A stretch of 64,000 nt of DNA. Source: Candidatus Acidiferrales bacterium (GTDB taxonomy: Bacteria > Patescibacteriota > Microgenomatia > Levybacterales > UBA12049). Position numbers and translations under genes: made by a program. Positions 21,353 to 48,039 of this stretch are shown piece by piece (positions within the stretch are counted from its first letter, which is position 1; every line of letters begins with the position of its first letter). The notes below the pieces were generated by a model. That model was not told the DNA's origin and did no database searches. It was given only the letters and a program-made list of their open reading frames with translations. Where the stretch lies: NCBI GenBank assembly GCA_035533875.1, contig DATLSZ010000031.1, positions 871 to 64,870 of the forward strand. The letters are read 5' to 3'.

Positions 21353-22275
21353 AAATTGTTGTAACAGGTGGAGCCGGATTTATCGGCTCACATATAACTG
21401 AGCTACTTTGTGATAAAAAACATTCAGTAAAAGTTATCGATAATTTATCTTTTGGATATGAACGCTTTATTGACAATCGAGCACAATTTATCAAAGGCGA
21501 TATAAATGATGAAAAGCTTTTGAAACGCGTATTGAAAGGTGCAGATGCAGTTGTTCATCTTGCAGCATCAAGCATCATTAAATTCTCTTATGACAATCCC
21601 CTATCGTATTTTGAAAATAACCTCATAAATGGTGTTAAGCTTTTGGATGCAATGAGAATTAACAGAGTAAGCAAAATTATAAATTCATCAACAGCAGCAG
21701 TATATGGAAATCCTCGAACTATTCCGGTTAAAGAGGACGACTTTAAAGAACCGATGAATACATATGGTGCATCCAAACTCGCATTCGAAGAAGCACTTTG
21801 CGCATACTATCATGCGTATGGCATCGATAGTGTTTCTCTCAGATATTTTAATGCTTATGGACCTCGTGATGAACAAAAACCCGCTACCCGCGCAGTACCT
21901 ATGTGGATGAAAGCAATTATCACAAACAAGCCGGTTGAAATGTATTGGAACGGTAAACAAATCAGAGATTATATCTTTGTTAAAGATATTGCAAAAGCGC
22001 ATATCGATGTTCTAAAATTGCGAGGATTACACTATTATAATATCGGATCAGGTAACGGTATTATGATGAAAAATATCATCACAACTATAGAGAAAATAGC
22101 CGGAAAAAAACTAAAAACAATTGATAAAGGAGAAAGAAAAGGAGATCCAGCCAAACTCGTTGCTGATATTTCAAAAATCAAGCGCGAAGTCAGCTGGGAA
22201 CCGCGGACTACACTATTTGAAGGCTTACAAAAAACATTTGAATATTACAATCAGACATTATCTAATAAAATATGA
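21349..22275 (+). CDS. UDP-glucose 4-epimerase-like SDR
   Basis: VTGGAGFIGSH, YGASKLAFE, 308 aa; 4-nt overlaps on both sides. Confidence 0.75.
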   Translation: MKIVVTGGAGFIGSHITELLCDKKHSVKVIDNLSFGYERFIDNRAQFIKGDINDEKLLKRVLKGADAVVHLAASSIIKFSYDNPLSYFENNLINGVKLLDAMRINRVSKIINSSTAAVYGNPRTIPVKEDDFKEPMNTYGASKLAFEEALCAYYHAYGIDSVSLRYFNAYGPRDEQKPATRAVPMWMKAIITNKPVEMYWNGKQIRDYIFVKDIAKAHIDVLKLRGLHYYNIGSGNGIMMKNIITTIEKIAGKKLKTIDKGERKGDPAKLVADISKIKREVSWEPRTTLFEGLQKTFEYYNQTLSNKI

Positions 22276-23252
22276 TCATTTCCAAAACTCCACTTCGTAT
22301 CAGTTTTGTCGGCGGCGGATCCGATATGGCTTCGTTTTATCAACATGAACCGGGAGCTGTAGTCTCGACTACAATTAACAAATACGTATACATAGCTGTT
22401 AATAAAAAATTCGATGATGCAATCCGGTTGAGTTATAAGGAAACAGAGAATGTACCTGATATTTCAAAACTTAAACATAACATCGCTCGAGAGACTTTGC
22501 GATTTCTCAAAATAAAGCAAGGGATTGAAATTTCTTCAATTGGCGATATTCCGGCAGAAACAGGGCTTGCAACTTCAGGTGCCTATACTGTTGGCTTGCT
22601 TAATGCTCTTATTACCTATCAAGGAAAAAGGATGACAGCGGAAGAATTAGCAAGAAACGCTTCAATCATTGAGATAGAAAAAGTAGGCCGTCCAATCGGC
22701 AAACAGGATCAGTATGTAGAAGCATATGGAGGGTTGAATTATATACAATTTAACCCGAACGGGTCTGTAAAAGTAGTGCCGATAAAACTTACTCCTGCAA
22801 AAAAAAAGAAACTCCAGTCACATCTCTTGCTTTTTTACACTGGATACGTTGCCTCTTCAGCAAAAGTTTTATCTAAGCAAAAGCAAATCATGGCAAAACA
22901 AATAGACAAACGGGCAATTATGTCTCAAATGGTAGGCTTGGCAAAAACATTAAAAAAAGAATTGCAGAAAGGAAATATAGATTCTTTTGGAAAACTGCTT
23001 CATGAAAATTGGCTACTTAAGAAAAAAATGGCAGGAGGAATAACAAATCGTAAAATAGATGAATGGTATGAGCAAGCGATAAAAAACGGTGCAATAGGTG
23101 GAAAAATTTGTGGTTCAGGCGGGAGAGGATTTCTGCTCCTCTATGCACCCCCACTTTCGCATAAAAAAATTAATGCAGCTTTATCAGAATTACAACAAGT
23201 AGACTTTTCATTTGAAGAAAAAGGGAGTACAATAATATACAATCAAGCATGA
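22272..23252 (+). CDS. hddA: GHMP sugar kinase, D-glycero-alpha-D-manno-heptose-7-phosphate kinase (HddA)-like
   Basis: N-terminus IISKTPLRISFVGGGSDM and GHMP motif PAETGLATSGAYTVGLLNAL; sits next to gmhA and the hddC::gmhB fusion. Confidence 0.7.
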   Translation: MIISKTPLRISFVGGGSDMASFYQHEPGAVVSTTINKYVYIAVNKKFDDAIRLSYKETENVPDISKLKHNIARETLRFLKIKQGIEISSIGDIPAETGLATSGAYTVGLLNALITYQGKRMTAEELARNASIIEIEKVGRPIGKQDQYVEAYGGLNYIQFNPNGSVKVVPIKLTPAKKKKLQSHLLLFYTGYVASSAKVLSKQKQIMAKQIDKRAIMSQMVGLAKTLKKELQKGNIDSFGKLLHENWLLKKKMAGGITNRKIDEWYEQAIKNGAIGGKICGSGGRGFLLLYAPPLSHKKINAALSELQQVDFSFEEKGSTIIYNQA

Positions 23253-23965
23253 AAAAAAAGAAATCAGAAATAAATGCTTTTATTCAAGAATACCTCAACG
23301 AAGTTAAAAACGCTCTTACAACTCTTGATACCAACACAATTCAAAACGCACTGAACATGATTATTAACGCGCATCAAAAGGGAAAAAGAGTATTTATTTT
23401 CGGCAACGGAGGAAGTGCATCAACAGCTTCTCATATGGCTTGTGATTTGGGAAAGGGTACGCTTTCAAGATTTTATGACAATAAAGAAAAACGACTTCGC
23501 GTCATGTCACTCAATGATAATATGGCACTTCTGACAGCGTATGCCAATGATCTTTCTTTTGAACACGCATTCGTTCAGCAACTGAAAAACTTGGTGGAAA
23601 AAGGAGATCTTGTTATCGTTCTTTCAGGCAGCGGCAACAGTAAAAATCTTATCAAAGCAATAAAATACGCAAAAGATAGAGGAGCGAAAACGATCGGCAT
23701 ACTTGGTTTTAAACACGGCGGCAAACTCGCTGAAATGGTTGACTGCGGCATCATTGTGCAAAGTAGCCATTATGGACCAGTCGAGGACATTCATCTGGTA
23801 TTGAATCATCTCCTGGCGTCTTGTTTTGCAAAAATCAAACGTGAGTATGAAATAGATAAACCGGCAAAAAATAAAGCAGTTCCCTACCCAAATAATTTTC
23901 TTGTTGAAGATGTAAAAATAAAAGATACAAAAAAACAGGATAAAAGAAATGCTACAGTACTCTAA
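23249..23965 (+). CDS. gmhA: Phosphoheptose (sedoheptulose-7-P) isomerase, SIS domain, with Lys-rich C-terminal tail
   Basis: RVFIFGNGGSASTASHMACDLGKG and VLSGSGNSKN are SIS/GmhA motifs. About 40 extra C-terminal residues compared with typical GmhA of about 195 aa. Confidence 0.8.
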   Translation: MKKKKSEINAFIQEYLNEVKNALTTLDTNTIQNALNMIINAHQKGKRVFIFGNGGSASTASHMACDLGKGTLSRFYDNKEKRLRVMSLNDNMALLTAYANDLSFEHAFVQQLKNLVEKGDLVIVLSGSGNSKNLIKAIKYAKDRGAKTIGILGFKHGGKLAEMVDCGIIVQSSHYGPVEDIHLVLNHLLASCFAKIKREYEIDKPAKNKAVPYPNNFLVEDVKIKDTKKQDKRNATVL

Positions 23966-23971
23966 TTCTAC

Positions 23972-25171
23972 ATGCGAAAGATAAAACAGGCAGTTATTCT
24001 GGCAGGCGGTCAAGGAACCCGACTTCGTCCTCTGACGAATAACACACCCAAACCCCTAATTCCAATCAACGGTAAACCATTTGTTCAATACATACTAGAA
24101 AACTTAAAAGAAAATAATATAAGAGAAGTTGTGTTTCTTGTCGGGTATCTAGGTGACAAAATAGAAGAATATTTTGGTGACGGAAGTAAATTTGGGTTAA
24201 AAATATCCTATTCTTATTCACCTATTGAATTCGATACCGGATCACGTATCAGAGAAGCGAGAAAACTTTTTGATGATACGTTTTTGCTTCTTTTTTGCGA
24301 TAATTACTGGCCGCTTGACCTAAAAGAGTTATTAAAATTTTATAATAACGTGGGTACTCCGGCTTCTGTAACTATTTATAAGAACTTTTATAATTATACA
24401 ATTAACAAAATAAAAGTTACTGATAAAAATTTGGTCGAAATTTATGATAAAACAGGCAAGTCAGCGGGATTAAACGGAGTTGATATCGGATATTTTATTC
24501 TAAAAAAGAATTTATTACGAAATCTACCCAAAGAAAACTTCTCTTTTGAAAAAGTGATAATGCAAAAATTAATTACCGAGAAACAACTCGCAGGCTTTAT
24601 GTCAAGTCATAAATACTATGGTTTAAGTAATTTGGAAAGGATACAGGATATAGAAAATTATTTCAAACCGAAGAATGTAATCTTCCTGGATCGGGATGGT
24701 ATTATTAATAAGAAGCCTCCGAGGGCTGATTATGTCAAATCTTGGGATGAATTTCATCTGTTGCCACATGCACTTGAAGCGCTCAAACTATTGACGAAAC
24801 AAAATTATGATATTTATATTGTGACCAATCAAGCTGGCATCGGCAGAGGTATGATGACAGAAAAGGATTTACAAACTATCCATAAGAATTTTCTAAAAAT
24901 ATGTAATGATAACGGAATCACGATAAAACAAATCTACTTTTGCCCTCATGATTGGAATACAAATTGTGAATGCAGGAAACCCAAACCAGGTATGTTCTTT
25001 CAAGCAGCCGCCGAACATAATTTTGATCTCACAAAAGCCCTCTTTATCGGCGATGACGATAGAGATAAGATCGCAGGAGAAGTAGCAGGATGTAAAACAT
25101 ATCTCATGAAACCAAATTCCAGTCTCTTAAAAAAAGTAAAAAGTATTGTTGATCCTAGAATTCTTATTTAA
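23972..25171 (+). CDS. Fusion: sugar-1-phosphate nucleotidyltransferase (HddC-like) + D,D-heptose-1,7-bisphosphate phosphatase (GmhB, HAD)
   Basis: N-terminal half: AVILAGGQGTRLRPLTNNTPKPLIPI. C-terminal half: FLDRDGIIN, VTNQAGIGRG, CPHDWNTNCECRKPKPGM (GmhB Zn-Cys motif), GDDDRD. Confidence 0.75.
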   Translation: MRKIKQAVILAGGQGTRLRPLTNNTPKPLIPINGKPFVQYILENLKENNIREVVFLVGYLGDKIEEYFGDGSKFGLKISYSYSPIEFDTGSRIREARKLFDDTFLLLFCDNYWPLDLKELLKFYNNVGTPASVTIYKNFYNYTINKIKVTDKNLVEIYDKTGKSAGLNGVDIGYFILKKNLLRNLPKENFSFEKVIMQKLITEKQLAGFMSSHKYYGLSNLERIQDIENYFKPKNVIFLDRDGIINKKPPRADYVKSWDEFHLLPHALEALKLLTKQNYDIYIVTNQAGIGRGMMTEKDLQTIHKNFLKICNDNGITIKQIYFCPHDWNTNCECRKPKPGMFFQAAAEHNFDLTKALFIGDDDRDKIAGEVAGCKTYLMKPNSSLLKKVKSIVDPRILI

Positions 25172-25241
25172 TTTAGTATAGAATATAAAAAATCTTGATG
25201 ATAAGATCTCTTTGAACATAATTCATATTATTCTTTAATTT

Positions 25242-26018
25242 ATGAAAGTAATTATACTCTGCGGTGGAATAGGAACACGACTTAAAGAAGAAACAGAATT
25301 CAAACCCAAGCCAATGGTCTATGTCGGGAACAAGCCGATCATCTGGCACATAATGAAGCATTATGCGCTTTTCGGACATAATGAATTCATACTCGCATTG
25401 GGCTACAAAGCAGATTATATAAAAGAGTTTTTTCTCAATCAAAAAGCGTTTACTACAGATTTTACTCTCGATACAGTAACACATAAAACTAAATTTTACC
25501 TCAAAAACAGATCTGAGAATGAAATAGATGATTTTAAAATTACGTTTGTTGATACCGGTTTGGATTCATTAATTGGAGAGCGTTTACTCAGGTGTAAAGA
25601 ATATGTTAAAGATGAAGATACATTTATGGTAACGTATGGTGACGGTGTAAGTGATCTTAATATCAATAAACTAATAAATTTTCATAAAAAACAAGGTACA
25701 ATCGGCACAGTTACTGGAGTACATCCTCGTACCAAATACGGTTTAATAAAAATCGCAAATAACAATATTGTAGAAAAGTTTCAAGAGAAACCCGTGCTTT
25801 CAGATTGGGTAAGTGGCGGCTATATGGTATTTAATAAAAAAATCTTTTCGTATATACGTTCCGATGAAATGGAAATTGAAGCACTTAAAAAATTGATTAA
25901 GAAAAAGCAATTATCAATCTACAAACACCAAGGATTCTGGTTCGCCGTTGACACGTATAAAGAATTAGAGGATCTCAATAAAATCTGGAACGAAAATCCT
26001 CCATGGAAATTATGGTAA
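25242..26018 (+). CDS. rfbF: Glucose-1-phosphate cytidylyltransferase
   Basis: MKVIILCGGIGTRLKEETEFKPKPMV..GNKPIIWHIMKHY, TYGDGVSDLNI, C-terminal PPWKLW; 258 aa. Closely matches my recollection of RfbF. Confidence 0.9.
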   Translation: MKVIILCGGIGTRLKEETEFKPKPMVYVGNKPIIWHIMKHYALFGHNEFILALGYKADYIKEFFLNQKAFTTDFTLDTVTHKTKFYLKNRSENEIDDFKITFVDTGLDSLIGERLLRCKEYVKDEDTFMVTYGDGVSDLNINKLINFHKKQGTIGTVTGVHPRTKYGLIKIANNNIVEKFQEKPVLSDWVSGGYMVFNKKIFSYIRSDEMEIEALKKLIKKKQLSIYKHQGFWFAVDTYKELEDLNKIWNENPPWKLW

Positions 26019-26974
26019 AAATGCTCAAAAATGAAAATATATTAGTTACAGGCGGAACTGGTTTTGTTGGATCACATCTCATCGAGGAACTTATTAAACA
26101 AAAAGCAAGTATTGTGACTACATATCAATTTCAGAATCCGAAATCATATTTTTTTACACAAAAAATGGATAAAAAGGTCACTTTAGTTAATACTAACGTC
26201 TGTGATTATAACGCTCTTTTTCATATTGTAACAAAATACGACATACGCTACATTTTCCATTTAGCTGCACAGCCTTTGGTAGACGTTGCGTATTATAATC
26301 CTGCACAAACAATTAAAACTAATATTATCGGCACTCTTAATATTCTCGAAACCGCAAGACAATATCCTCATTTAAAAGGAATCATTATTACTTCTTCAGA
26401 TAAAGCATATGGAAAAACAAAAAAGAATAAATATATGGAAGATGATTCACTTTCAGGAGACCATCCTTATGAAGTATCTAAATCAGCTGCGGATCTTTTA
26501 TCAAATACATATTTCAAAACATATAATACTCCTTTAGCAATCGTCCGGTTTGGAAATATATATGGCGAGGGAGATATGAACTTTTCCAGATTAATTCCCG
26601 GCACATTAAAAGCCATAATAGATAAAGAAATACTTGAAATAAGAAGTGACGGTACATATATCAGAGATTATCTATACGTAAAAGATGTTATTAAAGGGTA
26701 TATTGCGTTAATGACAGATATAGAGACACTCAAGGGCAATGCTTTTAATTTCGGATCTGAAGAAACGTTATCGGTATTGGAAGTCATAAATAAAATTGAA
26801 TCAATACTAAAAAGAAAAGTCGATGTTAAAATTCTCAAATCAGCCAAGAACGAAATACCGCATCAATCCCTTGATTATGCAAAAGTACGTAAAATGCTTA
26901 ACTGGAAACAAAAATATACATTTGATAAAACAATTCCAAATATATATAAATATTACAATAAGCTCTTAACGTAA
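26003..26974 (+). CDS. NDP-hexose (CDP-glucose) 4,6-dehydratase-like SDR
   Basis: VTGGTGFVGSHL, SSDKAYG, YEVSKSAADLL; directly follows rfbF. Start is ambiguous (ATG at 26003, 26012 or 26021). Confidence 0.6.
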   Translation: MEIMVKMLKNENILVTGGTGFVGSHLIEELIKQKASIVTTYQFQNPKSYFFTQKMDKKVTLVNTNVCDYNALFHIVTKYDIRYIFHLAAQPLVDVAYYNPAQTIKTNIIGTLNILETARQYPHLKGIIITSSDKAYGKTKKNKYMEDDSLSGDHPYEVSKSAADLLSNTYFKTYNTPLAIVRFGNIYGEGDMNFSRLIPGTLKAIIDKEILEIRSDGTYIRDYLYVKDVIKGYIALMTDIETLKGNAFNFGSEETLSVLEVINKIESILKRKVDVKILKSAKNEIPHQSLDYAKVRKMLNWKQKYTFDKTIPNIYKYYNKLLT

Positions 26975-27096
26975 TTCCATTGTATTTACAAAAAGACATT
27001 TTATAACGCACTGTTATAATAAAAGGAATATTGAAAAAATAGAAGCTAACTGTTACACTGTTTGGACAAAATAAACAATAAAAATTATTATTAAAA

Positions 27097-27993
27097 ATGA
27101 AACAAACGATCAGTATTGTTATACCAGCTTTTAATGAAGAACGCGTTATCCTCAAATTAACTACTGCACTTATCCATGCTATGAATGCTCTCCCCCAATT
27201 TGAATTTGAAACAATTATTGTTGAGCACGGATCAACAGACGATACATTTAATCAACTTCTAAAAGCGAGAAAGAAGGATAAAAGAATAAAGATTCTCAAA
27301 CTTGCAAAAAATGTCGGCTGTGACGGTGGCATAATTGCGGGATTGACGTATGCAACAGGTGATGCAGCTATTGTAATGATGGCAGATTTACAGGATAATC
27401 CGAATGCAATTCCACAATTTATCAAAAAATGGCAGGAGGGATATCATGTTGTGTATGCCGTCGTTACTAAACGTCCTCATGTCAAATTCTACAAACAACT
27501 CGGTGCTCTTATTTTTTATAAAATTATGAATTATTTTTCAAATGGTTTAATGCCTGAAAATGTCAGTGATTTTCGACTCATGGATAAATCAGTTTATAGA
27601 GCACTGACAGCGATGCCAGAACATAATAAATTTTTTCGGGGACTAGTTGCTTGGAGCGGCTTTCGACAAACGGGAATACCGGTACCACGAGCAGAAAGAG
27701 CTGCTGGTGAACCAAAGTCAGATTTCAGAACTCTTTTCAAAGTAGCTTCAAATGGGATTATTTCTTTTTCAAATTTCCCATTACGAATTCCCTGGTTATT
27801 TTCAGTACTTTTTTTTCTTGGAGGAGTTATTGCATTACTGTTCACCAACACATTAATAAGTATTCTTTTATTTTCTTTTGCCTTTTTAATGATAGTAATG
27901 GGTATACAAGGAGAATATATTGCTAGAATATTTGAAGAAACCAGAAAAAGACCAAATTTTATTGTTCAAGAACTGCATGGTCTTAAAATATGA
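27097..27993 (+). CDS. GT2 polyprenyl-phosphate glycosyltransferase (GtrB/ArnC-like) with two C-terminal TM helices
   Basis: ISIVIPAFNEERVI, MADLQDNP, two TM helices, then GEYIARIFEETRKRPNFIV. Paralogous in form to 5465..6406. Confidence 0.8.
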   Translation: MKQTISIVIPAFNEERVILKLTTALIHAMNALPQFEFETIIVEHGSTDDTFNQLLKARKKDKRIKILKLAKNVGCDGGIIAGLTYATGDAAIVMMADLQDNPNAIPQFIKKWQEGYHVVYAVVTKRPHVKFYKQLGALIFYKIMNYFSNGLMPENVSDFRLMDKSVYRALTAMPEHNKFFRGLVAWSGFRQTGIPVPRAERAAGEPKSDFRTLFKVASNGIISFSNFPLRIPWLFSVLFFLGGVIALLFTNTLISILLFSFAFLMIVMGIQGEYIARIFEETRKRPNFIVQELHGLKI

Positions 27994-28868
27994 AAACAAA
28001 AAGAGTTAAAGTCGGTATCATCGGTACTGGGAATATCGGTAGTGATCTTTTAAAAAAAGTATTGCGGTCTCATTATTTAGAATGCGGGATATTTACCGGA
28101 CAAAACCCGGATTCCGAAGGAATAAAACGGGCAAAAAAATTAGGAGTAACGACTTCATTTACTTCAATTAAAGCCATCACAGAAAATCCTGACTCATGTG
28201 ATATCGTATTTGATGCTACAAACGCCGAATCACATCTAAAACATGCACCTATTCTGAAAAAAATGGGGAAATTTGTTATAGATTTAACACCTTCTCGAAT
28301 AGGCAAAATGTGTGTACCTGTTATCAATATGACCGAATGTCTAAATGAACAAAATATTAATATGGTAACGTGCGGAGGACAGGTCACTATACCTATAATC
28401 TCAGCTATTATGTCAGTTCATCCGAATACCAAATATGTAGAGATTGTTGGAAGCATTGCATCTAAATCTGCAGGAATTGGTACAAGGAATAATATCGATA
28501 AATATACACAAACGACTAAAGATGCGATTGAAATGCTTGCTAAGGCACCTCTGGCAAAAGCAATTATTATACTTAATCCAGCTGATCCTCCAATAACAAT
28601 GCATAATACGATCTATGCACAAATTGATAACCCTAATCTTGATTTACTAAAAAAGGCAATAGATGTAACTGCGAAAAAAGTCAAACAATATGTTCCTGGG
28701 TATCATGTTGTCGTTGGACCAATCGCTGACAATGATAAAGTAACGATTATGATAGAGGTCCGTGGTGCAGGAGATTTTCTTCCGGCATATGCTGGCAATT
28801 TAGATGTTATCAATGCAGCTGCGATAACGGCTGCAGAAGCATATGCACAAAAAAAACTTCTTGTTTAA
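27990..28868 (+). CDS. Acetaldehyde dehydrogenase (acetylating), DmpF/MhpF family
   Basis: VGIIGTGNIGSDLLKKVLRS, FDATNAESH, NMVTCGGQVTIP (catalytic Cys), IASKSAGIGTR, ILNPADPP, LPAYAGNLD. Collinear with DmpF as I recall it. Confidence 0.9.
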   Translation: MKTKRVKVGIIGTGNIGSDLLKKVLRSHYLECGIFTGQNPDSEGIKRAKKLGVTTSFTSIKAITENPDSCDIVFDATNAESHLKHAPILKKMGKFVIDLTPSRIGKMCVPVINMTECLNEQNINMVTCGGQVTIPIISAIMSVHPNTKYVEIVGSIASKSAGIGTRNNIDKYTQTTKDAIEMLAKAPLAKAIIILNPADPPITMHNTIYAQIDNPNLDLLKKAIDVTAKKVKQYVPGYHVVVGPIADNDKVTIMIEVRGAGDFLPAYAGNLDVINAAAITAAEAYAQKKLLV

Positions 28869-28874
28869 GATATT

Positions 28875-29918
28875 ATGGAAAATAATTTACTTATTGTCGA
28901 TTCAACTCTCAGGGATGGCTCACACGCACTCGGTCATCAACTATCTGCTGAGATTATTACAACATACGCAAGGGGAGCTGAAGAAGCTAGACTTCCGTTA
29001 ATTATAGTTGGTCATGGAAACGGTCTAGGCGCTTCCTCCCTTCAACTTGGCATTTCATTATTACCTGATAAAGAAATGCTATTGACTGCAAAAAAGCAGT
29101 TAAAAAAAACCAAACTAGGAGCTTTTATGATACCGGGTTTTGGTACTATTAAGAATGATTTACAACCAGCTATTAAAATCGGGATTGAAGTGCTAATGGT
29201 CGCAAGTCATTGTACTGAAGCAAACATTACAAAAGAGCATATCATGTATGCAACAAGTACTGGTATAGAAACATATGGTGTACTTATGATGTCTCATATG
29301 ATATCAGCAGAAGAGCTCTTACAACAAGCATTATATATGCAATCATATGGCGCAAAAGGTGTATTGTTAATGGACTCTGCCGGTGCATATCTTCCCGAAG
29401 ATGTAACAAAAAAAGTTTCTACTTTGGTGAAAGGATTAAAAATCGCTGTTGGATTTCACGCGCACAATAATCTCGGAATGGCCATTGCAAATTCTGTTGC
29501 AGCGGTAAAGGCTGGGGCTACAATTATTGATACGACATCTCGAGGATTGGGAGCGGGTGCTGGAAATTGTCAGCTTGAAGTATTTGTAGCGGTGATGGAA
29601 AAAATGGGTATCAAGACTGAACTTAATTTATATAAACTTATGGATAATAGTGAATATATTGCAACAATTATGAAAAAGCCGCAAGAGATAAGCAGCATTG
29701 GGTTAACGAGCGGACTTGCTGGTGTTTTTTCAGGTTTTGCACCTCATGCGCTGAAACATGCAAAGACATTCAACCTTGATCCTCGTGATATACTTATGGA
29801 ATTGGGACGCAGAAAAGTCATCGCAGGACAGGAAGATATTATTATTGATGTAGCGGTATATTTGAAGAACAAAAATGATATAAAAGAAACAACAGATGAG
29901 ATTGAGGCGTTATTATAA
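28875..29918 (+). CDS. 4-hydroxy-2-oxovalerate aldolase, DmpG/MhpE family
   Basis: DSTLRDGSHALGHQ, VGHGNGLGASS, DSAGAYLPEDV, GFHAHNNLGMAIANS; 6 nt after the dehydrogenase gene. Confidence 0.85.
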   Translation: MENNLLIVDSTLRDGSHALGHQLSAEIITTYARGAEEARLPLIIVGHGNGLGASSLQLGISLLPDKEMLLTAKKQLKKTKLGAFMIPGFGTIKNDLQPAIKIGIEVLMVASHCTEANITKEHIMYATSTGIETYGVLMMSHMISAEELLQQALYMQSYGAKGVLLMDSAGAYLPEDVTKKVSTLVKGLKIAVGFHAHNNLGMAIANSVAAVKAGATIIDTTSRGLGAGAGNCQLEVFVAVMEKMGIKTELNLYKLMDNSEYIATIMKKPQEISSIGLTSGLAGVFSGFAPHALKHAKTFNLDPRDILMELGRRKVIAGQEDIIIDVAVYLKNKNDIKETTDEIEALL

Positions 29919-29921
29919 TCT

Positions 29922-31739
29922 ATGAATGTCGCAGACTTTATTATTAACTTTTTAAGCAGTAAAGGCGTTAATACTATTTTTATGGTAACCGGTGGTCAAG
30001 CAATGTTCTTAAATGATGCCGTCTTCAGGAATAAAAAAATAAAACCAATTTTTACTCATCATGAACAAGCTGCCAGTATGGCAGCAGAAGCGTATGGGAG
30101 AACAAAGGGAGATCTTGGCGTTGCAATGGTAACTGCCGGACCAGGAGCAATAAACGCGCTAAATGGCGTTGTCGGCGGATGGGTTGATTCTTCACCAATG
30201 ATGATCATTTCGGGACAAACAAATACTTCAGTAAGTCAATATATGATAGACCATCCAATACGCCAGTACGGCGTTCAAGGGATAAATACAAAAGCACACG
30301 TAAGTGCATCAACGAAATATTTTAAAACTGTCGACGATCCTGCAAAAATATTATACTATCTGGAAAAAGCCTATTATCTTGCGACAACAGGTCGAACAGG
30401 TCCTGTTTGGTTAGAAGTTCCCCTGGACATGCAGCGTACAGAAGTGCCTCTCAAACTCTTAAAAAAGTTTGAAAACCCAAGAGATACTATAAATGAAGTT
30501 TTGCTGAAACGTTCCACTGAAAATGTCATATCATCATTTTCAAAAGCAAAAAGACCACTCATTGTTGCCGGACAAGGAATACATATTGCCAAAGCTGAAA
30601 AAGAATTTGTTAAGCTTTTAAAAACACTTAAGCCTGCAGTTGTAACAACGCGGCTAGGTATTGACCTTATTAACAGCAATAATCCCTTATTCGTTGGACG
30701 TCCCGGTCTCTATGGAGATAGATATGCAAATATAGCAGTACAAAATGCGGATCTTATCTTAATTTTGGGAGCCAGAATGGACACTGGTATTATCGGATAT
30801 CATCCTCAAGACTGGGGAAGACATGCAAAAAAAATAGTAGTCGATAACGACGAAGAAGAATTAAAAAAACCTGGAATACGAATTGATCTTTCTATCAAAA
30901 ACGATATCAGTGACTTTCTCCAGATATTAAATCAAAAACTGACTAAGAAAAAAATGCCAAGTTATACAAAATGGATTACTATTTGTAACAACTGGAAAAA
31001 GAGATATCCTACTGTACTGCCTTCTTATAAAAATGAACATCCTGTTAACAGTTATTATTTTACTGAGCAATTATCACTTGCGGCAGATAAAAAAGACATG
31101 ATTCTTGTCGATACAAGTTCTCCTTTTCATGTCGTTTGTCAGGCATGGAATATAAAATTAGGTCAGCGTTTTTTAACTACCGGCGGAATTTCCACAATGG
31201 GATACTGGCCCGCGGGGATAGGGATGGCGATGACAGATCTTAAAAAAAGAACACTTATTCTTACAGGTGATGGTTGCTTGCAGATGAATCTTCAAGAATT
31301 GGCAACGATAAAACAAAATAACTTGCCAATCAAATTATTTATCTTTAATAACAATGGATATCTTCTCATCAGACATACACAAAAAACACATATGGAAGGT
31401 CGTTTCATGGGAGAAAGTCCTAAAACAGGTCTCTTTATTCCCGATTCAATCAAAATTGCAAAAGTGTATGGAATAAAAGGAGTAAGAATTCATAACACTA
31501 AAGAACTCGACAAAAAAATTAAAGAAGTTTTGGAATATCCAGGTCCGGTTATTTGTGACGTAATGACTCCGCAGTGGCAACTGATCATTCCACGAATCTC
31601 GTCTCAGAAAGCATCTGATGGAACACTGATTTCAAAACCTTATGAAGATCTGTTTCCTTTTTTAAGTACTGAAGAACTGAAAGCCAACATGGTTGCGGAA
31701 AAGAGTAAAAGTGAGGTCTCCATAATCGATGAAGAATAA
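29922..31739 (+). CDS. ThDP-dependent enzyme, acetolactate-synthase large-subunit/YerE-like
   Basis: N-terminal Pyr domain HEQAASMAAEAYGR..GVAMVTAGPGAINAL; ThDP motif LTGDGCLQMNLQEL...FIFNNNGY; 605 aa. No small regulatory subunit is adjacent. Confidence 0.85.
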   Translation: MNVADFIINFLSSKGVNTIFMVTGGQAMFLNDAVFRNKKIKPIFTHHEQAASMAAEAYGRTKGDLGVAMVTAGPGAINALNGVVGGWVDSSPMMIISGQTNTSVSQYMIDHPIRQYGVQGINTKAHVSASTKYFKTVDDPAKILYYLEKAYYLATTGRTGPVWLEVPLDMQRTEVPLKLLKKFENPRDTINEVLLKRSTENVISSFSKAKRPLIVAGQGIHIAKAEKEFVKLLKTLKPAVVTTRLGIDLINSNNPLFVGRPGLYGDRYANIAVQNADLILILGARMDTGIIGYHPQDWGRHAKKIVVDNDEEELKKPGIRIDLSIKNDISDFLQILNQKLTKKKMPSYTKWITICNNWKKRYPTVLPSYKNEHPVNSYYFTEQLSLAADKKDMILVDTSSPFHVVCQAWNIKLGQRFLTTGGISTMGYWPAGIGMAMTDLKKRTLILTGDGCLQMNLQELATIKQNNLPIKLFIFNNNGYLLIRHTQKTHMEGRFMGESPKTGLFIPDSIKIAKVYGIKGVRIHNTKELDKKIKEVLEYPGPVICDVMTPQWQLIIPRISSQKASDGTLISKPYEDLFPFLSTEELKANMVAEKSKSEVSIIDEE

Positions 31740-32583
31740 ATTGAAAGTTTTATTATTAGGAGGTTCTGGTTTTGTTGGTAAAAATATTTTGGAACAACTT
31801 TCTTCTAAATATATTATTCTCTCTCCTACACATCAAGAACTTGACCTTTTGAATGAAGAAGCAGTAGTAAAATTTTTTAGAAAGAATAAGCCTGATGTCG
31901 TTATTTATGCTATCAATCTCGGTGGAACTCGTAAAAAACAAGACACTGCCGATACGTTTAGTGATAACTTACAAATGTTCTTTAATGTTGTCAGATGCAA
32001 AAAATATTTTAAAAAAATGATCTTTCTTGGTTCTGGAGCAGAATACGATAAAAGAAATCCTCTTATCAAAGTAAAAGAAACCGATTTTGATAAAAGTATT
32101 CCTACGGATTATTATGGATTATATAAATATATTTGCTCTAAGTATATTGAGGGTTCTAAAAATATTATTAACTTAAGAATCTTTGGTCTATTCGGAAAGT
32201 ATGAAGACCATACAATAAGGTTTATCTCAAATGCAATTCGAAATGTAATTGATAACGGTTCAATTCTGATGAACCAAAACGTATATTTTGATTATGTTTA
32301 CATAAACGATTTTATTCGTATTCTCGATTATTTTATTTCTAATAAGCCAAAATATAAATTCTATAATATCGGAACTGGTAAACCTGTGGATCTTATCAAA
32401 ATTGCTCAAATGATAAACAAACTGGATGGGAAAAACAAGAAAATTATTATCAAAAAAACCGGGTTAGGCAAAGACTATACCTGTGACAATTCCCGGTTGA
32501 TAGAAGAACTACCTAATTTTTCATTCACACCTTTTCAAAAATCTTTGAAAATACTTTATCAATATTACTCTAAAAATAAGTAA
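31729..32583 (+). CDS. SDR NDP-sugar 4-ketoreductase (RmlD / GDP-fucose-synthase-like)
   Basis: LLLGGSGFVGKN, ELDLLNEEAVVKFFRKNKPDVVIYAI (RmlD/Fcl-type signature), YGLYKYICS (YxxxK). Confidence 0.65.
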   Translation: MKNKLKVLLLGGSGFVGKNILEQLSSKYIILSPTHQELDLLNEEAVVKFFRKNKPDVVIYAINLGGTRKKQDTADTFSDNLQMFFNVVRCKKYFKKMIFLGSGAEYDKRNPLIKVKETDFDKSIPTDYYGLYKYICSKYIEGSKNIINLRIFGLFGKYEDHTIRFISNAIRNVIDNGSILMNQNVYFDYVYINDFIRILDYFISNKPKYKFYNIGTGKPVDLIKIAQMINKLDGKNKKIIIKKTGLGKDYTCDNSRLIEELPNFSFTPFQKSLKILYQYYSKNK

Positions 32584-32586
32584 GTA

Positions 32587-33801
32587 TTATTTGTATATTT
32601 TTATAAACTTGTTAAATGTATCTTCTATTTTCTTGAGGTGCTTTTCTTCTAATCCTTGATGGCAACCAATTAAAAATCCTCGTTCCATTACTTCCTCTGT
32701 CATAGGAAAAGATTTCAAAAACGTTTTATGCTTTATGTTGCTAAACCCGGGTTGTTTGGTAATTACACCGGTAAATATCGGTCGAGTCTGAATGTTATTT
32801 TTTTCAAGAAATGTCAAAAGATCTACACGGCTGAAAGGAGCTAGTTTTTTTATTGTTAGCGGAAAAGCTAACCACTGTGTCTGAACAAGTGGATCTTGTT
32901 CCGGGAGTATAAATAGATTTTCATATTTCTTAAAGAATGAATGCAATTTTTTAAAATTAGTCTCTCTTATTTTTTTAAACTTATTCAGCTTTTTCAGCTG
33001 TGCATTACCAAAAGCAGAACCTATTTCCATTGGTAGAAAATTATACCCGATATCGGTGAAAATAAATTTAGCATCATACGGAAGTTGACCAATTTTAGTC
33101 TTATATCGAGATCCTATATCTTCTGTTTCCCCTATGAGAGCAGACCCTCTTCCCCACCCGCGTAATGTTTTTGCTTTATCTGCATACTTTTGTGAATCAA
33201 CTAAAAGCATTCCGCCATTTCCCCCTGCAGTAATAATATGCGATCCATAAAAACTGGTTGTACATATGTCCCCAAATTCGCCAACCTTCTTTTTGTTAAA
33301 TGTCGCTCCCAATGTATCACAAGAATCAAGAATAACAAACAAATTATGTTTTTTCGCGATCTTCTTAATTCTAACAAGATCCGGAACATTTCCGAGAAGA
33401 AATGGAATCATAAGAGCACGAGTCTTAGTGGTAATTGCTTTTTCAACTTGATCAAGATTGAGTATATAACTTCCCTTTTCGACATCAACAAATACTGGAA
33501 TAAGATCTTTCATAATAAGAGGAGCAACAGTTGTTGAAAAGGTGAGAATCGGTGTTATTACTTCCGACCCCTTTTGAATATTAAGAATTTCAATAGCAAG
33601 TAAATTAGCAGATGACCCTGAATTGACTGTAATACCAATTGATTTCCCAAAGAGAGAGGCAACTTTTTTTTCAAATTCTGCCGTTTCTTTCCCCATGATG
33701 GTACGGTGTTCACGTAAAACAGCTAGCACTCGTTCTTCTTCTTCTTTACCGTGGACCGCTAACCCATATGGAACTCGAAGATTATCTTGTTGTTTCGGCA
33801 T
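32587..33801 (-). CDS. DegT/DnrJ/EryC1-fold NDP-4-keto-6-deoxyhexose 3-dehydratase (E1/RfbH-ColD-like, His active site)
   Basis: VNSGSSANLLA, ILDSCDTLGA, SFYGSHIITAGG (His at the Lys position). Overall collinear with RfbH as recalled. Lacks the Cys-rich Fe-S motif. Confidence 0.7.
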   Translation of the reverse strand: MPKQQDNLRVPYGLAVHGKEEEERVLAVLREHRTIMGKETAEFEKKVASLFGKSIGITVNSGSSANLLAIEILNIQKGSEVITPILTFSTTVAPLIMKDLIPVFVDVEKGSYILNLDQVEKAITTKTRALMIPFLLGNVPDLVRIKKIAKKHNLFVILDSCDTLGATFNKKKVGEFGDICTTSFYGSHIITAGGNGGMLLVDSQKYADKAKTLRGWGRGSALIGETEDIGSRYKTKIGQLPYDAKFIFTDIGYNFLPMEIGSAFGNAQLKKLNKFKKIRETNFKKLHSFFKKYENLFILPEQDPLVQTQWLAFPLTIKKLAPFSRVDLLTFLEKNNIQTRPIFTGVITKQPGFSNIKHKTFLKSFPMTEEVMERGFLIGCHQGLEEKHLKKIEDTFNKFIKIYK

Positions 33802-33856
33802 AAATAGATTATATGGTTAAGAATATAACTTTGCAAGTAGAAATAGCTAAATTTTT

Positions 33857-35428
33857 TCATTCAAGCGATGCAATTAATGCAGTATCATAGGTATTCCATC
33901 TGGCGATAGAGGTATAACCTTTGAATTTATGAATATCTTCGTTTTGAACCATAACAAGCGGTTTATAAGCATAAATATATTGAGAAAGTTTTTGATCAAA
34001 TGGATACAAGCCTGAAGTAGCACCGCTGTAATTAACATAGAGAGGCAAAACATTAATCGAACTATCAGTAAAAGTCAAATAGAGTGGATCAGATGTATCT
34101 ATTACAAAATGCTTATTTGGATGTTTTTTTAAGTAATCATTCATAGTTTTTGATACATCCGCATAATATAACGCTTCTTTTGATGATACGTGCATACCTT
34201 TAAGCACATAAGGATAGGTCATATAAACATTATTCTTCTTAACTTTATTTATGGCATCTGAGATTCCACTAAGGGAAACAATTATAATTGAACATACTGT
34301 TACTAGTAAAAAAAATAAAGATAGTATTTGTAGTAGCTTTTGTCTTTGTTTAATATAATTAAATTTCCTAAAAACGTCCGTTTGGTTGTAGGCTTTATTT
34401 AAGAAATATACGAATAAGCCAATTGCAGGAGTTATAGCCCAGTACTCATGAGAATCATCTACTGTCGGATATATTTGAATTAATGATGAGATACAAATAA
34501 TACTGACGCCAAAATTTTTGATTGAATTTATATCTTTATTATTTTTTAGTGAAATAAATGATTTGATGAAAAATAGTAAAACGCATAAATTGATTAGTAA
34601 ATACAATGGATGAGTATAAAAATAATAACCAGCAGTTATTAAAAATGAGTTCCCGATTATTCGACCCTCAATATAACCTTCACGGATATTTTGCAACCAA
34701 TAATCCCACGTGGCATTATTTGCAATTAACCAAATAAAAAATGTGCTATAAGTTGTCAGGAATCCTGCGGTAAGTGTCCTAATGCTTTGTAAAGCAACTT
34801 TTTTATTCAAAATTTTAAAAAAGTATAATATGATAAAAAAAGTATTGAGTGCTAAAAAAAGTAGTAAATAAGGCTGTTTTGATAGAAATGCAAGACAAGC
34901 AACAATTCCCAAAACAAATATATCGAAAGATGATTTAAAAATTTTTCTATCTTTTATAAATTGAAATTTGTCTAAAAATATAAAGAGTGCAATGGTAGTA
35001 AATAACATTCCATAAACGGAAGCCCATGGGAATAGAATACTATAATAATAAGGCGCTAAAAATACCCAAAGAATTAATGAAACAACAGTAAGTTTAACCG
35101 AAAGATACTTCTCCCAAATCAGCCAAAGGAATAATCCGGTAATTGCATAAAGTATCGCAGTGGTTAACCGTATAACTAATACATATTGACCAAATAAATA
35201 AACCGAAATTCCTTGAATAAATGACGGTATTGGACCATAATGCGTATAGGTATCTCTAAAAAGTATTTTCCCCTGGGATATGTCAACCGCTGTTTTAAAC
35301 ATTATGCCGTCATGATGAGAATCGATATCAAATTGTGCGAAAAAAGAAGCAATTGCCAAAACAGAGAAAAATATCACTATCATTAACAAAATCCTGAATA
35401 TATTACTGTTTCTAAAAGTCTGTTTCAT
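33857..35428 (-). CDS. Polytopic membrane protein, GT-C-like
   Basis: 523 aa, more than 10 helices. First-loop motif DIDSHHDGIMFKTAVDISQGKILFRDTYTHYGP resembles that of 15426..16916; C-terminal soluble domain. Confidence 0.45.
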   Translation of the reverse strand: MKQTFRNSNIFRILLMIVIFFSVLAIASFFAQFDIDSHHDGIMFKTAVDISQGKILFRDTYTHYGPIPSFIQGISVYLFGQYVLVIRLTTAILYAITGLFLWLIWEKYLSVKLTVVSLILWVFLAPYYYSILFPWASVYGMLFTTIALFIFLDKFQFIKDRKIFKSSFDIFVLGIVACLAFLSKQPYLLLFLALNTFFIILYFFKILNKKVALQSIRTLTAGFLTTYSTFFIWLIANNATWDYWLQNIREGYIEGRIIGNSFLITAGYYFYTHPLYLLINLCVLLFFIKSFISLKNNKDINSIKNFGVSIICISSLIQIYPTVDDSHEYWAITPAIGLFVYFLNKAYNQTDVFRKFNYIKQRQKLLQILSLFFLLVTVCSIIIVSLSGISDAINKVKKNNVYMTYPYVLKGMHVSSKEALYYADVSKTMNDYLKKHPNKHFVIDTSDPLYLTFTDSSINVLPLYVNYSGATSGLYPFDQKLSQYIYAYKPLVMVQNEDIHKFKGYTSIARWNTYDTALIASLE

Positions 35429-35560
35429 AAAAAAATTTCATAGAGTCACATCAATAATCTATACATCGTTTAAACATATTTATCCAAATAGCCTATTTGA
35501 CCAATCATTGACTCATCATTTATTATATCTCATCTGAAACGATCTTGAATCATCCATTCT

Positions 35561-35628
35561 ATTTACTCACTACTATAATTTATAATATTTCCAAAAATAT
35601 ATTGATGTGTTATAGTTAGTGAGTAAAT
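35561..35628. promoter_or_regulatory. Long imperfect inverted repeat in the divergent intergenic region upstream of the paralog pair
   Basis: atttactcactactataa (35561-35578) against ttatagttagtgagtaaat (35610-35628): 12 bp perfect plus 6 bp after a 1-nt bulge, 31-nt spacer, ending 19 nt before ATG 35648. Confidence 0.5.
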
Positions 35629-35647
35629 TGATATATATAATTAAACT

Positions 35648-37435
35648 ATGGTAGATCCATATCACATGGTACTGGTAAATGTAATAGCAAGCATAATCCT
35701 ATTAATTGGTATCGTTATTTATTATTACATTTACCCAAAAAAAAAGATTAATCTTCTTTTTTTATTAATTATTATTTCCCTTTTGCCTCTGATAAGCTTA
35801 CTCAGGAAAGGAACATATGAGAGCGGACTTTTATCAGAAAATGTTGGTGTTGTAATTTCATTTTATAATTCACTCATGGATGGTATTTTGAAGCCGATGT
35901 GGTCTGCAAATGCTTGCTCAGGATACGGATGTCCGTTATTTATTTTTCAATACCCGCTTCCCTTTTATGTCGCATCTTTTTTCCATTACGTAGGATTTTC
36001 ATTTATATCAAGTGTAAAATTAATGCTCGCTGTAGCATTTATTGCATCCGGCGTGGCAATGTATTTCTGGGCTAAAGACGAGTTAGGAAAAATCTCAGGA
36101 TTCAGTGCCTCGATTTTTTATTTATTTGCACCATATCATCTCGCTTCGATGCATTTTAGAGTTTCAGTCGGTGAAGTCCTTTCATTTGTTTTTCCACCAC
36201 TCGTACTTTTATTCTCAAAAAAAATAGTTGAAACTGGTAAATTCTATTGGATATTTTTAAGCGCTGCGGCTCTTGCTTTATTAGTACTCTCACATCAAGT
36301 AACGTCTTTTGCCACATTTCCTTTTATTATCGCTTATATTATTTTTATGTATTTCAGAAATAAAAATAAAGAAATCAAATATTTTCTTTACAGTTTTATG
36401 TCAATTTTATTAGGAATATTTCTATCTGCTTTTTACTGGATACCTGTACTGGCCGAAAGGAACTATATGAAATTAGCGTTAGCTAACGAAGTTGTGTTTC
36501 AACCCTTTTGGTATTATATTTATTCACCATTTCAATATCGTTTTGGCTTATTATTTCAAGGACAACATGGTGAGCTGTATACAAATGTTGGATATGCTTC
36601 TCTTATAATCTTAGCAATATCTTTATTTCTTCACTTTACAAACAGAATAAATAAATCAAATAGAAGTTTCTACTTATTTTTGCTCGTATCTTTTTTTATC
36701 TATTTCATCATGATGCAACAAATAACAAGTCCTATATGGTACTCAAATCACATTTTAATTGATATTGAATTTACTTGGCGTTTTTTAATTGAAATTTCTT
36801 TTATTATTGCTATGATTGCTGGAATTACTCTCAAATCTATTAACAAAAAATGGTTTACAATACTAGTTTGTATGTTTGCGATACTAGTCACAATCCTTAA
36901 TTGGGGGAACAGAAAAATGCTTTCGCAGGTTACAGATACAAATTTTATAAATGCTCCTATGTATATTGAAAAACCATGTATAACAGAGCTATCAACTCCA
37001 ATTTGGGTAGATAATTGTGCTTCTTGGATAGGTACATTTCCCAAAAATCATCTTCAAGTTTTAAAGGGTAATGCGACTGTCAAACAAATTTATCGGACAT
37101 CGATAAAACATTCTTATGTTGTTGATGCAAATACACGTGTACTATTAAAAGAAAATACCTATTATTATCCGGGTTGGACTGTTTATGCAAATGATAAGGA
37201 AATTCCTATTATTAAAAATAATTCACAATACAAAGGAATAATCACGTTTAATCTTCCAAAGGGGTTATATAAAATTGATGTTGTATTTAAAAGAACTCTT
37301 GACCGTATAATCGGAGATACTATCAGCTTAATTACGTTTATTTTACTCATAATAATCGCTCTTTTAAAAAAAATATTACTTTTATTAAATAGTAAAAAGT
37401 TTAAAAAAAGTAAACGATTAATAATTAAACTATGA
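35648..37435 (+). CDS. YfhO/PTPS-related-type polytopic membrane protein (putative GT-C), paralog A
   Basis: 595 aa, multi-TM; C-terminal extracytoplasmic domain with ENTYYYPGWTVYANDKEIPI and a terminal TM helix. About half of the residues are identical to 37432..39198 by eye. Confidence 0.6.
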   Translation: MVDPYHMVLVNVIASIILLIGIVIYYYIYPKKKINLLFLLIIISLLPLISLLRKGTYESGLLSENVGVVISFYNSLMDGILKPMWSANACSGYGCPLFIFQYPLPFYVASFFHYVGFSFISSVKLMLAVAFIASGVAMYFWAKDELGKISGFSASIFYLFAPYHLASMHFRVSVGEVLSFVFPPLVLLFSKKIVETGKFYWIFLSAAALALLVLSHQVTSFATFPFIIAYIIFMYFRNKNKEIKYFLYSFMSILLGIFLSAFYWIPVLAERNYMKLALANEVVFQPFWYYIYSPFQYRFGLLFQGQHGELYTNVGYASLIILAISLFLHFTNRINKSNRSFYLFLLVSFFIYFIMMQQITSPIWYSNHILIDIEFTWRFLIEISFIIAMIAGITLKSINKKWFTILVCMFAILVTILNWGNRKMLSQVTDTNFINAPMYIEKPCITELSTPIWVDNCASWIGTFPKNHLQVLKGNATVKQIYRTSIKHSYVVDANTRVLLKENTYYYPGWTVYANDKEIPIIKNNSQYKGIITFNLPKGLYKIDVVFKRTLDRIIGDTISLITFILLIIIALLKKILLLLNSKKFKKSKRLIIKL

Positions 37436-45700: not shown

Positions 45701-45726
45701 ATATACTGGTTAATATACTTGGTAAG

Positions 45727-45800
45727 TGGCCATTGAGGGATTCGAACCTTCGACCTTTCGAATGTGAATCGAACGCTCTAACCAACTGAGCTAAATGGCC
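45727..45800 (-). tRNA. tRNA-Val (anticodon CAC)
   Basis: Hand-folded from the reverse complement: acceptor GGCCATT/AATGGCC, D-arm GCTC-AGTTGGTTA-GAGC, anticodon arm TTCGA-TTCACAT-TCGAA (CAC), variable AGGTC, T-arm GAAGG-TTCGAAT-CCCTC (one A.C mismatch), discriminator A. CCA is not encoded. Confidence 0.9.
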
Positions 45801-45863
45801 AGTAAAACTTATTCTACCATATTATCGTTGACAAATGAGGCTTCAAATTGAGATAATCAACAG

Positions 45864-46439: not shown

Positions 46440-46489
46440 TAATAAATCAAAAAATCTTGCTGTACTTGAAGTTTTTGTAACCAATAGTT

Positions 46490-47311: not shown

Positions 47312-47555
47312 GAATTACCTCAACATATTTCTTGCCTTTTAGTGTTTTGAAGTTGACTTTGCCTTCCTGCATTGCAAAAAGGGTAAAGTCCTTCCCCATT
47401 GCTACGCCAGGACCTGCGTTGAATTTTGTGCCCTTTTGACGGACAATGATATTTCCAGTAGTTGCAGATTCGCCGCCATATAATTTAACTCCACGGCGTT
47501 TCGATCGAGAGTCTCTATTTCCTTTTACTGATCCTTGTGCTTTTGTATGTGCCAT
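47304..47555 (-). CDS. rpmA: 50S ribosomal protein L27
   Basis: [28 protein letters not shown]...[12 protein letters not shown]. Confidence 0.95.
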
Positions 47556-47604
47556 AGTATTCTTTCTAAAATTTTTCTATATGTGAAAATTTCTCTTATA
47601 TTAC

Positions 47605-47624: not shown

Positions 47625-47672
47625 AAGCCCACTCGTTGTAAATGAATAATTTAATAGATCTTATATTTTATT

Positions 47673-48017: not shown

Positions 48018-48039
48018 AGTATGTATTATACCAAAGCTT

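Follow-up and report, generated by a model that had tools for sequence, protein, structure and literature searches.

Between positions 25242 and 33801 of the 64,000-nucleotide stretch analyzed here (contig DATLSZ010000031.1, hereafter the window) lie eight tightly packed genes that we read, with a probability of roughly three in four, as a self-contained cassette for making an acyl-branched 3,6-dideoxyhexose of the erwiniose type, all of its steps being assigned from homology and synteny. The logic of such a pathway was published in 2022, so that the window represents a member of a known pathway and no new kind of biology; our comparisons support its placement as a new, probably Candidate Phyla Radiation (CPR), member with three variant features. 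The first gene, on the forward strand like the six that follow it, is assigned to a sugar-1-phosphate nucleotidyltransferase, likeliest a glucose-1-phosphate cytidylyltransferase of the RfbF/DdhA type (25242..26018), and it overlaps by 16 nt the gene for a nucleoside diphosphate (NDP)-hexose 4,6-dehydratase, a short-chain dehydrogenase/reductase (SDR) resembling the cytidine diphosphate (CDP)-glucose 4,6-dehydratases (26003..26974). After a gap of 122 nt come a GtrB/ArnC/PgfS-like family 2 glycosyltransferase (GT2; 27097..27993), predicted to act on polyprenyl phosphate; an ErwJ/DmpF/BphJ-like acylating acetaldehyde dehydrogenase (27990..28868), whose start is overlapped for 4 nt by the GT2 stop; an ErwI/DmpG/BphI-like class II pyruvate aldolase 6 nt further on (28875..29918); an ErwE/YerE-like, C4-branching carboligase dependent on thiamine diphosphate (ThDP) and probably also on flavin adenine dinucleotide (FAD), 3 nt after that (29922..31739); and, overlapping the latter by 11 nt, an ErwF/YerF-like NAD(P)H-dependent extended SDR (31729..32583), the proposed side-chain ketoreductase. 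The eighth gene (32587..33801) is on the reverse strand, convergent with the SDR gene and 3 nt from it, and is assigned to an E1-lineage NDP-4-keto-6-deoxyhexose 3-dehydratase of the RfbH-like DegT family, dependent on pyridoxamine 5′-phosphate (PMP). In the list of open reading frames (ORFs) this layout, with its coordinates, overlaps, and gaps, is exactly the one described in an earlier sequence-only reading of the window, and the motifs quoted there are present: GIIGTGNIGSDLL at residue 9, MVTCGGQ at 125, and LPAYAGNLD at 264 of the dehydrogenase, DSTLRDGSHA at residue 9 of the aldolase, and GDGCLQMN at 449 and NNNGY at 476 of the ThDP enzyme. The family assignments of all eight genes were upheld by Pfam and NCBIfam profile scans, in which bit scores were compared with the NCBIfam equivalog cutoffs.

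In the route that we propose, the nucleotidyltransferase and the 4,6-dehydratase would produce an NDP-, probably CDP-, linked 4-keto-6-deoxyglucose, from which the E1-lineage dehydratase would take off the 3-hydroxyl group to give the 4-keto-3,6-dideoxyhexose, probably in a ColD-like manner and with no E3 reductase. In parallel, the DmpF-like dehydrogenase would convert acetyl-CoA to acetaldehyde, and the attached DmpG-like aldolase would join acetaldehyde and pyruvate into 4-hydroxy-2-oxopentanoate, for which a (4R) configuration is predicted from a Phe/Phe pair. The YerE-like ThDP enzyme would decarboxylate this acid and add a 3-hydroxybutanoyl unit to C4 of the keto sugar, after which the SDR would reduce the side-chain ketone. 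The GtrB-like GT2 would probably attach the finished sugar to polyprenyl phosphate, from which a GT-C enzyme would pass it to an acceptor at the cell surface. The main residual uncertainty concerns the exact branch, in both length and configuration, and the nucleotide carrier.

The precedent comes from Pectobacterium atrosepticum SCRI1043, where the ThDP enzyme ErwE and the reductase ErwF adjoin the BphI-like ErwI and the BphJ-like ErwJ, next to the genes for CDP-4-keto-3,6-dideoxyglucose (Steitz et al. 2022, PMC9306805). The published scheme, a proposal that has been shown in vitro in part, has ErwJ provide acetaldehyde and ErwI make (R)-4-hydroxy-2-oxopentanoate, which ErwE adds to the keto sugar before ErwF reduces the adduct to erwiniose (PMC9306805). 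In vitro, ErwE couples 4-hydroxy-2-oxopentanoate to a ketone surrogate with (1R,4R) selectivity and rejects pyruvate, a rejection that excluded a branch-first order; its conversion of the C6 acid 4-hydroxy-2-oxohexanoate reaches 76%, against 49% for the C5 acid, and the same acceptor carries a C4 branch in erwiniose and a C6 branch in caryophyllose (PMC9306805). The sequence-only reading had put forward the same mechanism as this scheme, with the DmpFG pair running in the aldol direction to supply 4-hydroxy-2-oxovalerate as the ThDP donor, and the erwiniose and caryophyllose structures that it invoked are consistent with the publication; its remark that no biochemical characterization of the gene combination was known is out of date, the mechanism having been partly shown in vitro (PMC9306805).

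The window and the Pectobacterium cluster share a YerE-like carboligase, an SDR reductase, a BphI-like aldolase, and a BphJ-like dehydrogenase beside deoxyhexose genes, as well as the proposed mechanism and product class, and the 41% identity of the window aldolase to DmpG is comparable to the 43% similarity reported between ErwI and BphI. The order of the genes is J-I-E-F in the window and may be E-F-J-I in Pectobacterium, as read from the consecutive accessions WP_011093010 to WP_011093013 (ErwE/F/J/I). Pectobacterium is an enterobacterium with lipopolysaccharide (LPS), whereas the host of the window is low in GC content and probably belongs to the Patescibacteria. Unlike the Pectobacterium cluster, the cassette has embedded GtrB-like GT2 and GT-C genes, and its 3-dehydratase is without three of the four iron–sulfur (Fe–S) ligands, with no E3 found.

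The dehydrogenase, aldolase, and ThDP genes travel together well beyond the window. Searching one genome per species with an alignment of 25 members of the ThDP subfamily, we matched 190 species representatives; neighborhoods were counted for the best 80 of these 190 loci (54–66% identity) by tblastn and by ORF-level BLAST of the window proteins. Pectobacterium is not among these best 80. The three genes are colinear and directly adjoining in 67 of the 68 loci with at least 2.1 kb of upstream sequence, with median gaps of −4 nt and 14 nt, and even in the lone exception (L007) a tblastn match to DmpF (65%) lies in the right place. Where at least 8 kb is available on both sides (42 loci), a nucleotidyltransferase is found in 31, a 4,6-dehydratase in 37, and a 3-dehydratase in 37. 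The synteny with the window extends over nine genes in one locus, L005. Hosts of the triad include metagenome-assembled genomes (MAGs) of Patescibacteria, Omnitrophota, Elusimicrobiota, Planctomycetota, and Lentisphaerota, together with the cultured Clostridium gasigenes DSM 12272 (L063), Lachnotalea glycerini DSM 28816 (L070), and Lachnospiraceae ZAX-1 (L059). The locus of the window is itself present in identical form in about 10 independent assemblies, including the metagenome contig ENA ERZ27256799; since its core is also syntenic in dozens of species, the arrangement of the genes is not due to chance.

Recurrent linkage in glycan loci was the outcome that the sequence-only reading had named beforehand as supporting its proposal, and the retention of the triad next to dideoxyhexose genes across phyla supports its view that DmpFG was recruited to sugar synthesis. 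The erwiniose-type module is thus a widely distributed and tightly conserved three-gene unit, beyond the described Pectobacterium and mycobacterial systems, and this distribution predicts long-branched deoxysugars on many uncharacterized cell surfaces. The cultured carriers are organisms in which such a sugar could be sought, and the family as a whole is a source of natural, probably (4R)-selective aldolases and of ThDP carboligases that accept ketones, both of biocatalytic interest.

The same survey bears on the possibility that a catabolic DmpFG pair and a biosynthetic acetolactate synthase are simply chance neighbors inside a glycan island. Both DmpFG-type proteins do pass the equivalog cutoffs of the catabolic enzymes (377.5 bits with TIGR03215, cutoff 282, for the dehydrogenase; 389.5 bits with TIGR03217, cutoff 286, for the aldolase), and the top NCBIfam match of the ThDP enzyme is acetolactate synthase. 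We nevertheless regard such a coincidence as very improbable, given the synteny of the triad across phyla, the score of the ThDP enzyme against the IlvB equivalog model TIGR00118 (340 bits, cutoff 538), and the residues that determine stereochemistry in the aldolase, which differ from those of DmpG and BphI in every linked family member. Profile scans of the window ORFs of at least 150 aa recovered no ilvN or ilvC and no hydratase, dioxygenase, or other meta-cleavage gene, in line with the sequence-only reading, which had seen no further gene of the meta pathway. A reading of the genes as catabolic DmpFG and IlvB is effectively refuted by the cross-phyla synteny.

To judge from its matches, the ThDP enzyme, which contains three TPP-enzyme domains, is of the YerE-like class and is not the biosynthetic acetolactate synthase IlvB. 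Its best solved relative is JanthE (8RPH; 374 bits, 34% identity), the true acetohydroxyacid synthase (AHAS) entries of the PDB reach at most 220 bits, and the enzyme falls about 200 bits short of the TIGR00118 cutoff. JanthE is termed YerE-like by its authors (PMC12188165). In one MAG (L020, 10001-13624), the ThDP gene is immediately followed by a paralog whose product shares 39% identity with the window enzyme, which hints at two successive or alternative branchings there. The SDR gene that comes after the ThDP gene in the window (PF01370, PF04321) has homologs of 41–58% identity in 15 of the 42 fully flanked loci, and in L005 and L050 the homolog likewise stands directly after the ThDP gene.

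The yersiniose A pathway of Yersinia pseudotuberculosis (DdhA-D, YerE, and YerF) resembles the proposed route in its CDP-4-keto-3,6-dideoxyhexose acceptor, in an AHAS-fold ThDP/FAD carboligase acting at C4, and in its NAD(P)H-dependent reductase. It differs in that YerE uses pyruvate to install a C2 branch and has no aldolase or dehydrogenase partner, whereas the window has both. One could then suppose that the cassette directs a C2 branching of the yersiniose type, with pyruvate or free acetaldehyde as the ThDP donor, and that DmpFG supplies or removes acetaldehyde and pyruvate or that the aldolase extends an acetyl branch already attached. JanthE, the closest solved relative, takes pyruvate as well as longer donors, YerE itself uses pyruvate, and acetaldehyde supply was the alternative raised in the sequence-only reading. 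We judge this improbable: a DmpF-DmpG-ThDP linkage as tight as 67 in 68 loci, combined with an intact aldolase site, is hard to explain unless the product of the aldolase is the donor; YerE systems do not need DmpFG; and ErwE rejects pyruvate in the published system (PMC9306805).

Returning to the erwiniose-type route, we note that its donor-forming pair has kept the features of the catabolic DmpFG, BphIJ, and MhpEF complexes, namely the fold, the catalytic Arg/Asp/His residues, the metal ligands, the nucleophilic Cys, and the communication domain. The dehydrogenase matches 7Z3S (311 bits) and DmpF (1NVM_B, 248 bits) and conserves the nucleophilic Cys within MVTCGGQ; in the aldolase, which includes the DmpG communication domain, residues R17, D18, H21, H200, and H202 of DmpG are all retained in the alignment. 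The catabolic complexes work in meta-cleavage and are (4S), whereas the window pair has no such context, would act biosynthetically in the proposed route, and is predicted to be (4R). This prediction derives from two positions. The window aldolase has Phe in place of both Y291 and L88 of DmpG (Y290 and L87 of BphI), which are Tyr and Leu in the aligned catabolic 1NVM and 8IH7. Among the 73 ThDP-linked aldolases, position 291 is Phe in every one (73/73), and position 88 is aromatic or His (Phe in 49, Tyr in 22, His in 2). BphI loses its stereocontrol upon the Y290F replacement, and when this is combined with L87W or L87N the enzyme becomes specific for the (4R) enantiomer (PMC3962088). The Phe/aromatic pair at the equivalent positions predicts that the window aldolase and its linked relatives are (4R)-selective, giving the enantiomer used by ErwE. 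Phe at DmpG-291 with an aromatic residue at DmpG-88 would make a simple signature by which to tell glycan-linked, probably (4R)-selective aldolases apart from the catabolic DmpG and BphI.

The same residues bear on whether these enzymes build a different branch, starting from another aldehyde (e.g., propionaldehyde from propionyl-CoA) or making the (4S) acid, and so yield a homolog or stereoisomer of erwiniose. Aldolases of the BphI type take several different short aldehydes, with chain length gated by L89 of BphI (PMC3962088), and the corresponding position 90 is Ile and not Leu in 69 of the 73 linked aldolases; Ile is near Leu in size, however, and therefore gives no reason to expect longer aldehydes. 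The preference of ErwE for the C6 over the C5 acid (76% vs 49%; PMC9306805) speaks for a longer branch, and the split between Phe and Tyr at position 88 hints at more than one product type within the family, but acetyl-CoA is the default substrate of the dehydrogenase family, and the Phe/aromatic signature favors (4R), as in erwiniose. We therefore consider a different branch unlikely.

The genes for the acceptor sugar are less clear-cut in their specificity. The nucleotidyltransferase (PF00483) matches TIGR02623 over its full length with 267 bits (cutoff 300), the 4,6-dehydratase (PF16363, PF01370) scores 205 bits with the CDP-glucose model TIGR02622 (cutoff 278) and 176 bits with the dTDP-glucose dehydratase model, and the 3-dehydratase scores 354 bits with NF011936 (cutoff 423), which places all three below the equivalog cutoffs of the CDP pathway. 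The sequence-only reading had taken a cytidylyltransferase, a 4,6-dehydratase, and a 3-dehydratase together to yield the 4-keto-3,6-dideoxyhexose; homologs of all three are present, but they do not amount to the full Yersinia route, which also needs an E3 reductase.

The 3-dehydratase resembles both ColD and the Yersinia E1 (3BCX) in being a DegT-family enzyme dependent on PMP/pyridoxal 5′-phosphate with a His in place of the Schiff-base Lys. Its best PDB match is E1 (246 bits; ColD, 149 bits), and its segment SFYGSHIITAG aligns with SFYPAHHITMG of E1, so that a His occupies the position of E1 H220; this is the residue that tells dehydratases from aminotransferases. Of the E1 residues C193, C251, C253, and C261, which we take to be the four ligands of the [2Fe-2S] cluster, only C193 is kept, the other three aligning to S, L, and I. 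The window enzyme thus shares with ColD the want of the E1 Fe–S motif, while it groups with E1 by sequence. A canonical E1 with the full set of four cysteines is encoded in 48 of the related loci, and the variant occurs in the window and in five Patescibacteria-type loci. All of the 120 nearest homologs in the protein database (120/120) share the variant pattern, with no Cys in the loop that matches E1 residues 245–265, which indicates that the cysteine-poor variant forms a large clade. In Levybacteria, the variant dehydratase belongs to a dideoxyhexose cassette of the ordinary sort, and neither a ThDP gene nor an E3-type gene lies within ±10 kb.

Profile scans detected no ORF with E3-type ferredoxin/FNR domains among the window ORFs of at least 150 aa, nor did a search for ferredoxin motifs turn up any E3-like ORF within ±10 kb of either canonical-E1 or variant loci. 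Because the canonical-E1 loci are also without a nearby E3, its absence from the neighborhood does not discriminate between the two classes, and we argue E3 independence from the missing Fe–S ligands alone. The Yersinia route uses a canonical Fe–S E1 with its E3 reductase; with three of the four ligands absent and no E3 found, the 3-dehydration step of the window probably differs from it, and the enzyme probably works in a ColD-like, glutamate-driven, E3-independent manner. A candidate clade of E3-independent 3-dehydratases is a practical output of the analysis.

The fate of the finished sugar is suggested by the glycosyltransferase genes. The GT2 matches PgfS and ArnC end to end (profile positions 3–304 of 308 and 7–311 of 316, respectively), with scores of 217 and 120 bits that are both below cutoff, and it has a hydrophobic stretch near its C-terminus (residues 227–276). 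Homologs of 44–55% identity stand directly upstream of DmpF in five loci (L005, L020, L022, L027, and L071). On the other side of the cassette, 55 nt upstream of the dehydratase gene and on the same (−) strand, is the gene for a multi-pass GT-C-like membrane protein (33857..35428) with about eight hydrophobic segments and a weak PMT_2 match (22.8 bits, cutoff 26.1), a candidate transferase for the lipid-linked sugar. It is followed by genes for two + strand GT-C/YfhO/PTPS_related-like membrane proteins (35648-37435 and 37432-39198; PF10131), possibly associated, each with 10–12 hydrophobic segments. In the syntenic L005, a GT-C homolog with 46–52% identity to the + strand pair comes directly after the dehydratase, so that GT2 and GT-C homologs flank the module as they do in the window. 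A GT2 with a C-terminal anchor beside multi-pass GT-C proteins recalls the GtrA/GtrB/Gtr(type), ArnC/ArnT, and PgfS/PgfM systems and suggests that the sugar is moved to polyprenyl phosphate and from there to an extracytoplasmic acceptor, the most speculative step of the route. The window would differ from these systems in its donor, an unusual CDP-linked branched sugar, and no flippase was assigned to the route.

Several points weigh against the assignment of the cassette to an erwiniose-type pathway. The likeness to ErwE, ErwF, ErwI, and ErwJ was judged from protein families, gene context, and the published description. Identity between the ThDP enzyme and JanthE is only 34%, and the second-best solved match of the enzyme, 5AHK, which is presumably PpYerE, scores 229 bits against the 220 bits of AHAS; as this is barely above AHAS, the YerE-like placement rests on JanthE and on the gene context. 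With both early enzymes short of the CDP equivalog cutoffs, their nucleotide specificity is uncertain. We infer the E3-free activity of the cysteine-poor E1 clade from sequence, and no member of that clade has been characterized. To our knowledge, CDP-sugars are not established donors for GtrB-type enzymes, and we know of no glycan structure for any carrier of the clade. A more far-reaching joint reading, which we hold tentatively and consider doubtful as a whole, is that LPS-less candidate-phyla bacteria may have rebuilt the erwiniose-type pathway through a large Fe–S-free and E3-free clade of E1-lineage dehydratases that converges on ColD, a natural (4R) DmpG-type aldolase that reproduces the engineered stereo-switch of BphI, and delivery on polyprenyl phosphate by a GtrB-like GT2 and GT-C proteins; the island may in that case also hold a second C-branching module built on a split transketolase (TK).

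The host is probably a bacterium of the Patescibacteria (CPR). The nearest named relatives of its isoleucyl-tRNA synthetase (IleRS; 49149-51971) are mostly Patescibacteria, Saccharimonadales, and Levybacteria (68–73% identity), and the closest syntenic loci are from Microgenomates and Patescibacteria MAGs, which makes the label “Candidatus Acidoferrales” of identical NCBI proteins unreliable. The contig is probably misbinned or mislabeled under that name, and several MAG loci labeled as uncultured Gammaproteobacteria with CPR-like synteny (e.g., L006 and L027) may share the problem. The cassette lies inside a glycan island of about 45 kb with a GC content of ∼29–37%, which rises to ∼37–42% past a tRNA-Val gene (45726-45800), in a region that includes housekeeping genes (signal peptidase, ParB, FtsW, and IleRS). 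The island (1-45700) may have been acquired horizontally or may simply be compositionally distinct from the remainder (45800-64000). Besides numerous GT2 and GT4 genes, it includes a pair of flippase-like genes, five genes for GT-C-like membrane proteins, a heptose-nucleotide pathway, and several methyltransferases. A scan of 24900-36000 for promoters and terminators gave no excess over shuffled sequence (54 vs 52.7 promoter-like sites and 6 vs 5.2 terminator-like sites), and with counts equal to the shuffled expectation it is uninformative.

The possible second C-branching module spans 3268-6406 (+) and consists of an SDR (3268-4221, +), a split transketolase made up of a TK-N protein (4231-4962, +) and a TK pyrimidine-binding piece with no Transketolase_C domain (4959-5465, +), and a PgfS/ArnC-like GT2 that is 34% identical to the GT2 at 27097 (5465-6406, +); a GT-C-like gene (179-1594, −) is nearby. 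Split-gene TKs proposed to hydroxyacetylate keto sugars were known only from 13 Streptomyces clusters and are uncharacterized, according to a review (PMC12247030). About 7 of the 80 related loci have split TK pairs of 30–38% identity, and in L086 and L087 the pair converges on the gene for an E1-like dehydratase from the variant clade. These two loci also share with the window a fusion and gene order found directly upstream of the cassette, in a complete nucleotide-heptose pathway (21349-25171, +) composed of a GalE-like SDR, an HddA-like heptose-7-phosphate kinase, a GmhA isomerase, and a fused HddC-like nucleotidyltransferase and GmhB phosphatase of 399 aa. Taken with the two genes at 35648-37435 and 37432-39198, the GT-C/PMT_2/YfhO/PTPS_related-like multi-pass proteins of the window number five (the others at 179-1594, 15426-16916, and 33857-35428), and several of them adjoin GT2 genes; this suggests that multiple lipid-carrier-dependent extracytoplasmic glycosylation modules may exist in a genome probably without LPS.

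Three further proteins stand out. Within the glycan island, a 633-aa protein (41083-42984, +) combines a C39-like peptidase domain with a weak match to a phage baseplate hub (gp41-like). Outside it, an 879-aa protein has a PQQ-like beta-propeller and a Spherulin4 domain (53597-56236, −), and a 532-aa protein carries a ricin-type lectin domain (58345-59943, −), with a pilin-like gene nearby (52100-52648). The latter two proteins are possibly surface-exposed or carbohydrate-binding and related to the glycan island.

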